Assembly (NCBI GenBank): GCA_029856145.1 | Contig: JAHQWK010000028.1 | Coordinates: 1 to 64,000, forward strand | Source of the DNA: Promethearchaeia archaeon | GTDB lineage: Archaea; Asgardarchaeota; Lokiarchaeia; Sigyniarchaeales; SOKP01 | Direction: 5' to 3' | Length of the DNA: 64,000 bases | In this document: positions 22,092 to 22,291 of the stretch, piece by piece | Numbering within the stretch: the stretch's first letter is position 1 | Layout: every line of letters starts with the position of its first letter | Notes under the pieces: generated by a model | What the model was told of the DNA's origin: nothing | Databases searched by the model: none | The model's input: only the letters and a program-made list of their open reading frames with translations | Program-made: the position numbers and the translations under genes

Positions 22092-22291
22092 TTAATTTTT
22101 TTTGAAAATATTACCACACCCACCGCACTTCATGTTTTTTGCATAGACTGGAGTGCCCTGCTTCAGCGGTAGGCTGAAATAGCTTTACCTATACTGTAGT
22201 AAAGCACGTTATTCCTGTCTGATTCTTCATGAAGCTTGCGTGGATTCTCATTGCCACATTGAGGACATTTTACTCTTTTATATTCTGTCAT
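22092..22291 (-). CDS. Small Zn-ribbon protein (56 aa spliced), split gene: exon 1 22291-22191, exon 2 22161-22092; absent from ORF track
   Basis: Spliced product MTEYKRVKCPQCGNENPRKLHEESDRNNVLYYSMQGTPVYAKNMKCGGCGNIFKKN; the two CxxCG knuckles lie in different frames before splicing. Confidence 0.85.
22162..22190 (-). other. 29-nt bulge-helix-bulge mRNA intron
   Basis: CAGU/GCUG central helix, bulges AUA and AAG, inner stems GGUA/UACC and GCU/AGC, exon-exon stem GUGCUUU/AGGGCAC. Confidence 0.82.

Follow-up and report, generated by a model that had tools for sequence, protein, structure and literature searches.

A probable bulge-helix-bulge intron in the coding sequence of a zinc-ribbon gene of Loki-type Asgard archaea

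We found that a small zinc-ribbon gene of an Asgard archaeon is interrupted by a 29-nt insert that is most probably (we put the probability at roughly 0.9) a genuine intron in a protein-coding mRNA, removed as a bulge-helix-bulge (BHB) element by the endonuclease EndA, with the exons ligated by RtcB. The analyzed window is a stretch of 64,000 nt from contig C28 of a 3.55-Mb genome with 30% GC. In their source records, homologues of the gene carry the label Promethearchaeota or Lokiarchaeia; judging from these relatives, the host is therefore a Loki-type Asgard archaeon.

The gene lies on the minus strand (22291–22092), and the insert occupies 22190–22162. The frame that begins with ATG 22291 encodes the first cysteine knuckle (CPQCG) and ends after 42 amino acids at a TGA within the insert (22165–22163), and the second knuckle (CGGCG) is encoded in the −1 frame, ending with TAA 22094–22092. 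The insert's length is not a multiple of three. As the preliminary description proposed, removing these 29 nt, including the in-frame UGA, joins the two frames into a 56-amino-acid product with VLYYSMQGTPVYAKNMKCGGCGNIF. Exon 1 (22191–22291, minus strand) contributes the ATG, codons 1 to 33 with the first CxxC knuckle and the first hairpin strand, and the AT of the Met34 codon (tblastn residues 1–34). Exon 2 (22092–22161, minus strand) contributes the G of Met34, QGTPVY, the second CxxC knuckle and the TAA stop. The gene was said to be missed entirely by gene callers, which holds for exon 2; database entries from relatives list the truncated first half, 42 amino acids long, as a hypothetical protein (P0036, P0038 and P0040).

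A BRE-like A-run followed by a TATA-like TTTAAAT lies on the minus strand about 50 nt upstream of the ATG (22341–22358), and this element is kept upstream of the gene in nine of the ten orthologues displayed, with and without the intron. A BRE followed by a TATA-like element is the established form of an archaeal promoter; by this form and its conservation, the element is likely a promoter. Between aroK and the zinc-ribbon gene, the window also holds a gene for a 183-amino-acid membrane-type protein (22563–23114, plus strand), seen only here and in three close relatives; elsewhere aroK is directly upstream.

We searched 101 genomes for orthologues and cut out 70 loci. Half of these (35/70) are interrupted at this site by an insert that is invariably 29 nt long, and all of them belong to one genus (35 of its 54 genomes). 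The remaining 35 loci read M-Q-G straight through and come from the same genus (14), the same family (6) and the same order (15). The gene aroK is found upstream in 54 loci of the family, backing orthology within it. With an RNA model of the intron and its flanks, each of the 35 carrier genomes gave a single strong match, and there were no other strong matches. The intron is absent from the two complete genomes G074 and G079. The homologue search that had been asked for beforehand returned uninterrupted proteins that read YYSMQGTP and share as much as 91% identity with the predicted product, and none of them needs the insert. The contigs of the closest full-length homologue, P0001, span a convergent gene, and its source is therefore intronless DNA.

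Any 29-nt excision restores the reading frame, and consequently the position of the junction must be fixed independently. When we shifted the excision by 1 to 4 nt in either direction, the invariant S-M-Q-G was altered in at least 34 of the 35 orthologues; an excision one base off, on either side, yields Ile or Lys/Arg/Thr instead of Met. Only the unshifted, canonical junction, which creates AGU AUG CAG and is the one first proposed, retains S-M-Q-G in all 35. The end bases of the intron vary (first base A, T or G; last base A, G or C), and the adjoining exon bases, AT and G, are invariant. Therefore, the rule set by the protein and the rule set by the RNA geometry mark the same bonds.

The minus-strand transcript is predicted to fold around a central helix that pairs CAGU (22196–22193) with GCUG (22167–22164). 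Each strand of the helix is followed by a 3-nt bulge, AU^A (22192–22190) on the 5′ side and AA^G (22163–22161) on the 3′ side, so that the two halves of the motif cover 22190–22196 and 22161–22167. In each bulge, the cut is predicted to follow the second base. The intron itself forms a hairpin (22168–22189) with the stems GGUA/UACC and GCU/AGC and a 5-nt loop, AUUUC (22180–22176). The flanking exons form an outer stem (22153–22207), GUGCUUU (22207–22201) with AGGGCAC (22159–22153), and an internal loop separates it from the central helix. The minimum-energy fold of the region has a predicted free energy of −18.9 kcal/mol (z-score −2.41), with 4 of 200 shuffles being as good. The fold drawn in the preliminary description is essentially this one in its CAGU/GCUG helix, AUA bulge, and intron and exon stems; its 3′ bulge is partly paired in the computed optimum, where two of the bases (AG) pair with an upstream CU and the 3-nt bulge is a near-optimal alternative. 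The name given there, a relaxed BHB, was right as to BHB geometry and needs refinement as to class: with 4/4 central, 4 intron and 0 exon pairs, the motif is HBh′, because the 3′ bulge has no exon pair immediately next to it. Four central and four intron-stem pairs at the junction were obtained in none of 20,000 shuffles of the insert with its flanks fixed.

Across the 35 orthologues, the central helix is 99.3% paired, with full 4/4 pairing in 34; one orthologue (L050) has a C-A mismatch in this helix, and the intron stems are weak in a few others (L036 and L046). For the whole structure, 93.5% of cells are paired over 35 distinct sequences, as compared to 26–50% when the structure is slid along the alignment. 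Because relatedness inflates the shuffle control, we weighed covariation by the count of pairs with two-sided changes rather than by cell counts. We observed nine such pairs (shuffle mean 4.9, a control that kinship inflates; none of 500 shuffles had as many), including seven of the eight pairs listed for the intron hairpin and one pair of the outer stem; for example, a G-C pair of the intron stem becomes A-U in nine sequences. The Ser codon within the central helix is AGY in all 35 intron carriers and in 11 of 34 other loci; being kin, the loci compared are not independent. Judged from these alignments, the RNA structure of the intron is under selection. As for the AUUUC loop, its exact form is kept in only 16 of the 35 orthologues, so that a strict recognition motif is unsupported. 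A search for group I, group II or other catalogued RNAs found no Rfam match at E-values up to 5, and at 29 nt the insert is not ribozyme-sized.

The coding sequence on the far side of the insert is maintained as protein. In the spliced frame, exon 2 has a pN of 0.105, a pS of 0.673 and a dN/dS of 0.066 over 33 orthologues, as compared to a dN/dS of about 0.7 for the insert in either frame. By this measure, exon 2 is under purifying selection and the gene is alive, which largely refutes a dead gene. An assembly error would have to be common to 35 independent assemblies. The real product might instead be the 42-amino-acid first half, which databases do hold and whose stop falls at the same codon in 27 of the 35 orthologues. 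That stop, however, coincides with the conserved helix sequence GCUG-A, it lies at earlier codons in the other eight orthologues, and the residues that the insert would add show no conservation at the protein level; a structure model also requires exon 2 for the second strand (residues 38–46) and the second knuckle. Together, the readings as a dead gene, as a misassembly or as a gene for a 42-amino-acid product make up the least probable of the explanations that we weighed, with hardly any chance of being correct. Re-initiation at an in-frame CUG before exon 2 was also considered and rejected, as this codon is CUA in two orthologues.

The ribosome could also join the two frames without splicing, by shifting to the −1 frame or by hopping across the hairpin. 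The 29-nt length in all 35 orthologues gives the constant frame offset that recoding would need, and a hairpin and an in-frame stop are both present. However, the orthologues share no window for such a shift: in L035, frame 0 ends 6 nt into the insert, and in L036 and L055 the −1 frame opens only after 23 nt of it. The insert is under protein selection in neither frame. A translational hop requires matching take-off and landing codons, as in T4 gene 60, and a hop from AUA or AGU would land here on AAG, AGG or ACG, making the invariant Met impossible. Inserts at other sites of the same gene, described below, have lengths of 30, 31, 32, 33 and 36 nt and thereby cover all three frames. We therefore regard ribosomal recoding as very improbable, and excision of the insert as an intron remains the preferred reading.

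By sequence, the genome encodes two EndA paralogues (C11:135.5–136.1 kb and C24:98.7–99.3 kb) and RtcB. The alpha-like EndA aligns best to chains 3p1z_B and 3ajv_B, which we take to be Aeropyrum pernix chains; it keeps the Tyr, His and Lys residues and has a KPR loop aligned to K44-P45-R46 of 3p1z_B. KPR-loop residues are reported to be required for cleavage and have been tied to a broad substrate range (PMC12397907). The host thus appears to possess a broad-specificity, two-subunit EndA together with a ligase. ARAGORN called introns in several tRNA genes of this genome; its relaxed run was uninformative.

The insert might be removed by something other than EndA, either another RNA-processing route or precise DNA excision in part of the population. 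Precisely intronless copies do occur in DNA assemblies, with L158 nested among the carriers and L146 nearly identical to the spliced junction. Against this, the insert is in the consensus sequence of all 35 genomes and has no terminal repeats, second genome copy or Rfam match. In this insert and in six others, two 3-nt bulges flank a 4-bp helix and the junctions coincide precisely with the second base of each bulge, which is the geometry of EndA. Removal by such a route has a slim chance, comparable to that of recoding.

Under the EndA reading, the zinc-ribbon transcript would fold into a bulge-helix-bulge of the HBh′ form, the two-subunit EndA would cut between the second and third bases of both 3-nt bulges, and RtcB would join the exons to create AGU AUG CAG and a four-cysteine zinc ribbon of 56 amino acids. 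Unspliced mRNA would yield the 42-amino-acid fragment, which contains a single knuckle and half the beta hairpin. We infer cleavage and ligation in the cell, and the identity of the enzymes, from the conserved geometry, covariation and junction, from selection on exon 2, and from the enzymes' presence in the genome.

A profile of 30 homologues matches residues 288–333 of 7whg_G, the C-terminus of Lokiarchaeota 2DGel, with an E-value of 1.7e-8. The product has the two CxxC motifs and the extended Tyr-bearing loop of the 2DGel-type Zn domain in addition to this homology, and by sequence it represents, in stand-alone form, the Loki-specific Zn domain of the 2DGel C-terminus. According to the original description, this domain has stand-alone forms, and its conserved Tyr-tipped loop likely binds a partner (Akil 2022, PMC9433394); the domain did not bind F-actin and is disordered in the 2DGel structure (PDB 7WHG) (PMC9433394). 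The genome holds eight more copies of the domain at protein C-termini (contigs C9, C11, C19, C20 and C2), including one in a 339-amino-acid gelsolin. A structure model of P0001 (pLDDT 84) has strands at residues 20–32 and 38–46, which places the intron position at the modelled tip of the protein's hairpin. Most likely, the protein serves as an interaction module and binds a partner through its hairpin tip, YYSMQG, at the intron site. Some homologues carry the JGI name of ribosomal protein eS31 (S27ae), which we rejected: the Pfam S27a match has an E-value of 0.066, below the cut-off, and the eS31 chain reaches 0.012, as compared to 1.7e-8 for 2DGel. A fold search returned no match at an E-value of 0.001, and the Atlas contained only unnamed clusters at about 0.9.

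The same gene appears to have received introns elsewhere. From proteins that were broken or lengthened, and with the motif not used for finding them, we identified seven more inserts at three sites located 17, 21 and 26 nt downstream of the studied site in the mature message (31 nt in L043; 32, 30, 33 and 31 nt in L031, L033, L154 and L155; 31 and 36 nt in L153 and L156). Cutting by the BHB rule restores the normal protein in all seven cases, with 4/4 central pairs in six inserts and 3/4 in one. The chance rates per insert are 0.001 to 0.015 (0.001 to 0.011 for the six with 4/4 central pairs), and these are somewhat optimistic, as the junctions were picked by eye from the protein and the motif. 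The insert of L156 (L156:601-807) is 36 nt long, in frame and without a stop; it has a full hBHBh′ motif, and the locus is annotated as a 68-amino-acid protein. Therefore, such introns are invisible to searches for broken frames. Four other homologues (P0050, P0072, P0075 and P0079) end a few residues past QGTPVY and probably have further inserts at the downstream sites.

Two genomes have two introns in the zinc-ribbon gene. In one of them, L043 (genome G015), the 31-nt second intron is located at a second CAGTAT, 17 nt downstream of the first, and the 17-nt middle exon has no duplicated residues. Second and first introns are identical in 24 of 31 columns, a score reached by none of 5,000 shuffles. 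Because a second CAGTAT target is present and the 17-nt exon lacks duplicated residues, copying to a similar target would fit the sequences better than tandem duplication. Neither a tRNA intron nor any other locus was found to match the zinc-ribbon intron.

In a tree of aroK and the exon codons away from the site, the carriers of the studied intron are not one clade (p-AU 1.4e-11), and three changes are required. The intronless L158 is nested inside a supported carrier group (100/100 and 97/95). The tree of aroK alone, without four added loci, does not reject one clade (p-AU 0.19). Most likely, to judge from these trees, a single gain within the genus was followed by one or more precise losses, and the same short stretch of the gene would have acquired introns at three further positions. 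Recombination with an intronless allele would leave the same pattern as precise loss.

We also looked for spliced molecules and for comparable introns in other genes. Three runs labelled 'RNA? (probably DNA)', aligned to 14000–23500 of the window, have no gap or joint at 22162–22190, where their cover is thin or absent. In metagenome_contigs, the spliced-junction pattern had no match and the unspliced pattern matched eight records. The exact spliced protein is absent from a collection of 15 billion proteins, which says little because the collection is built mostly from DNA gene calls. Three ab initio BHB scans across the genome did not rise above controls with shifted bulge sizes. A motif-free census, which is noisy, found one frame-breaking BHB insert here, two in 0.4 Mb of G002 and none in 0.8 Mb of G074. 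The two in G002, a genome without the studied intron, are 37 and 31 nt long and lie in other genes (C1 near 28141 and C2 near 6605, both minus strand). Candidate inserts of 30–33 nt in protein genes of the present genome (G000) have BHB geometry at C32:34945 (+), C10:33334 (+) and C4:8293 (−) and lie outside the canonical rule at C5:34195 (+). A BHB match in G074, a 41-nt insert (L078:3719-3759), proved to sit inside a 23S rRNA gene.

Scans of the genome also recovered an insert in the uL11 gene, 7.4 kb away in the window. The zinc-ribbon insert has no sequence match to it or elsewhere in the genome, which agrees with the initial claim of two separate cases. The uL11 insert is a 28-nt BHB element (14741–14768, minus strand) whose removal gives a 165-codon frame reading GINIKDVVDE. 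One 251-nt contig of run X2, without mismatches, lacks exactly these 28 nt; it has only 14–16 letters on one side (31 required), and the run may be DNA. This contig hints at splicing or at an intronless strain and is not proof of either.

We are inclined, with reservations, toward a broader view in which endonuclease-spliced mRNA introns are an actively moving class in the Lokiarchaeia lineage, with many gains, copying to similar sites, precise loss and a 17-nt micro-exon, and in which mRNA splicing would be routine among archaea closely related to eukaryotes. Conservation of this case, with covariation, across 35 genomes indicates that Asgard annotations hide split genes. Four sites in one small gene, together with what look like a copy and a precise loss, provide direct material on how such introns arrive, a question left unanswered by the 2026 study of Asgard tRNA introns (bioRxiv 10.64898/2026.10.13.758758). 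The case bears on whether mRNA splicing by TSEN-related enzymes was common in the lineage leading to eukaryotes; it has no direct bearing on spliceosomal introns, because their chemistry differs.

Among known systems, Asgard tRNA introns have the same motif classes (HBh′ is scored as canonical), repeated gains and two EndA paralogues; that study covers tRNA genes only, the word 'mRNA' is absent from its text, and copying between tRNA genes was rare (1.5%) (bioRxiv 10.64898/2026.10.13.758758). Compared to those introns and to the copying of tRNA introns in Thermoproteales, we see one apparent copy event inside an mRNA. The 2DGel paper describes the two CxxC motifs and Tyr loop shared with our protein, and its accessible part does not mention an intron (PMC9433394). 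The BHB intron of Haloferax HVO_1309 is likewise an EndA substrate in an mRNA, but it lies in the 5′ UTR and the reading frame is independent of it; according to the 2020 paper, cbf5 and a single case in a 5′ UTR are the only examples in mRNAs (PMC7714728). In the literature that could be searched, with subscription papers mostly outside it, cbf5 was the only archaeal coding-sequence intron of this type, and none was found for Asgard protein genes.

The cbf5 pre-mRNA introns of Desulfurococcales and Sulfolobales are 16–44 nt long, and their spliced cDNA has been sequenced (Watanabe 2002; Yokobori 2009, PMC2738675). Like them, the zinc-ribbon intron is a short insert in a coding sequence (29 nt) that splits a codon, has a BHB-like junction with the cut between bulge bases 2 and 3, coincides with a hetero-oligomeric EndA, and shows lineage-specific gain and loss; as far as sequence can tell, it shares every defining feature of the cbf5 type. 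Unlike cbf5, which has one conserved position in another phylum and gene, it belongs to a set of four positions that span 26 nt of a single gene among relatives, with two introns in two genomes, a 17-nt middle exon in one of them, and apparent copying; its splicing is predicted from DNA sequence, whereas that of cbf5 was seen in cDNA.
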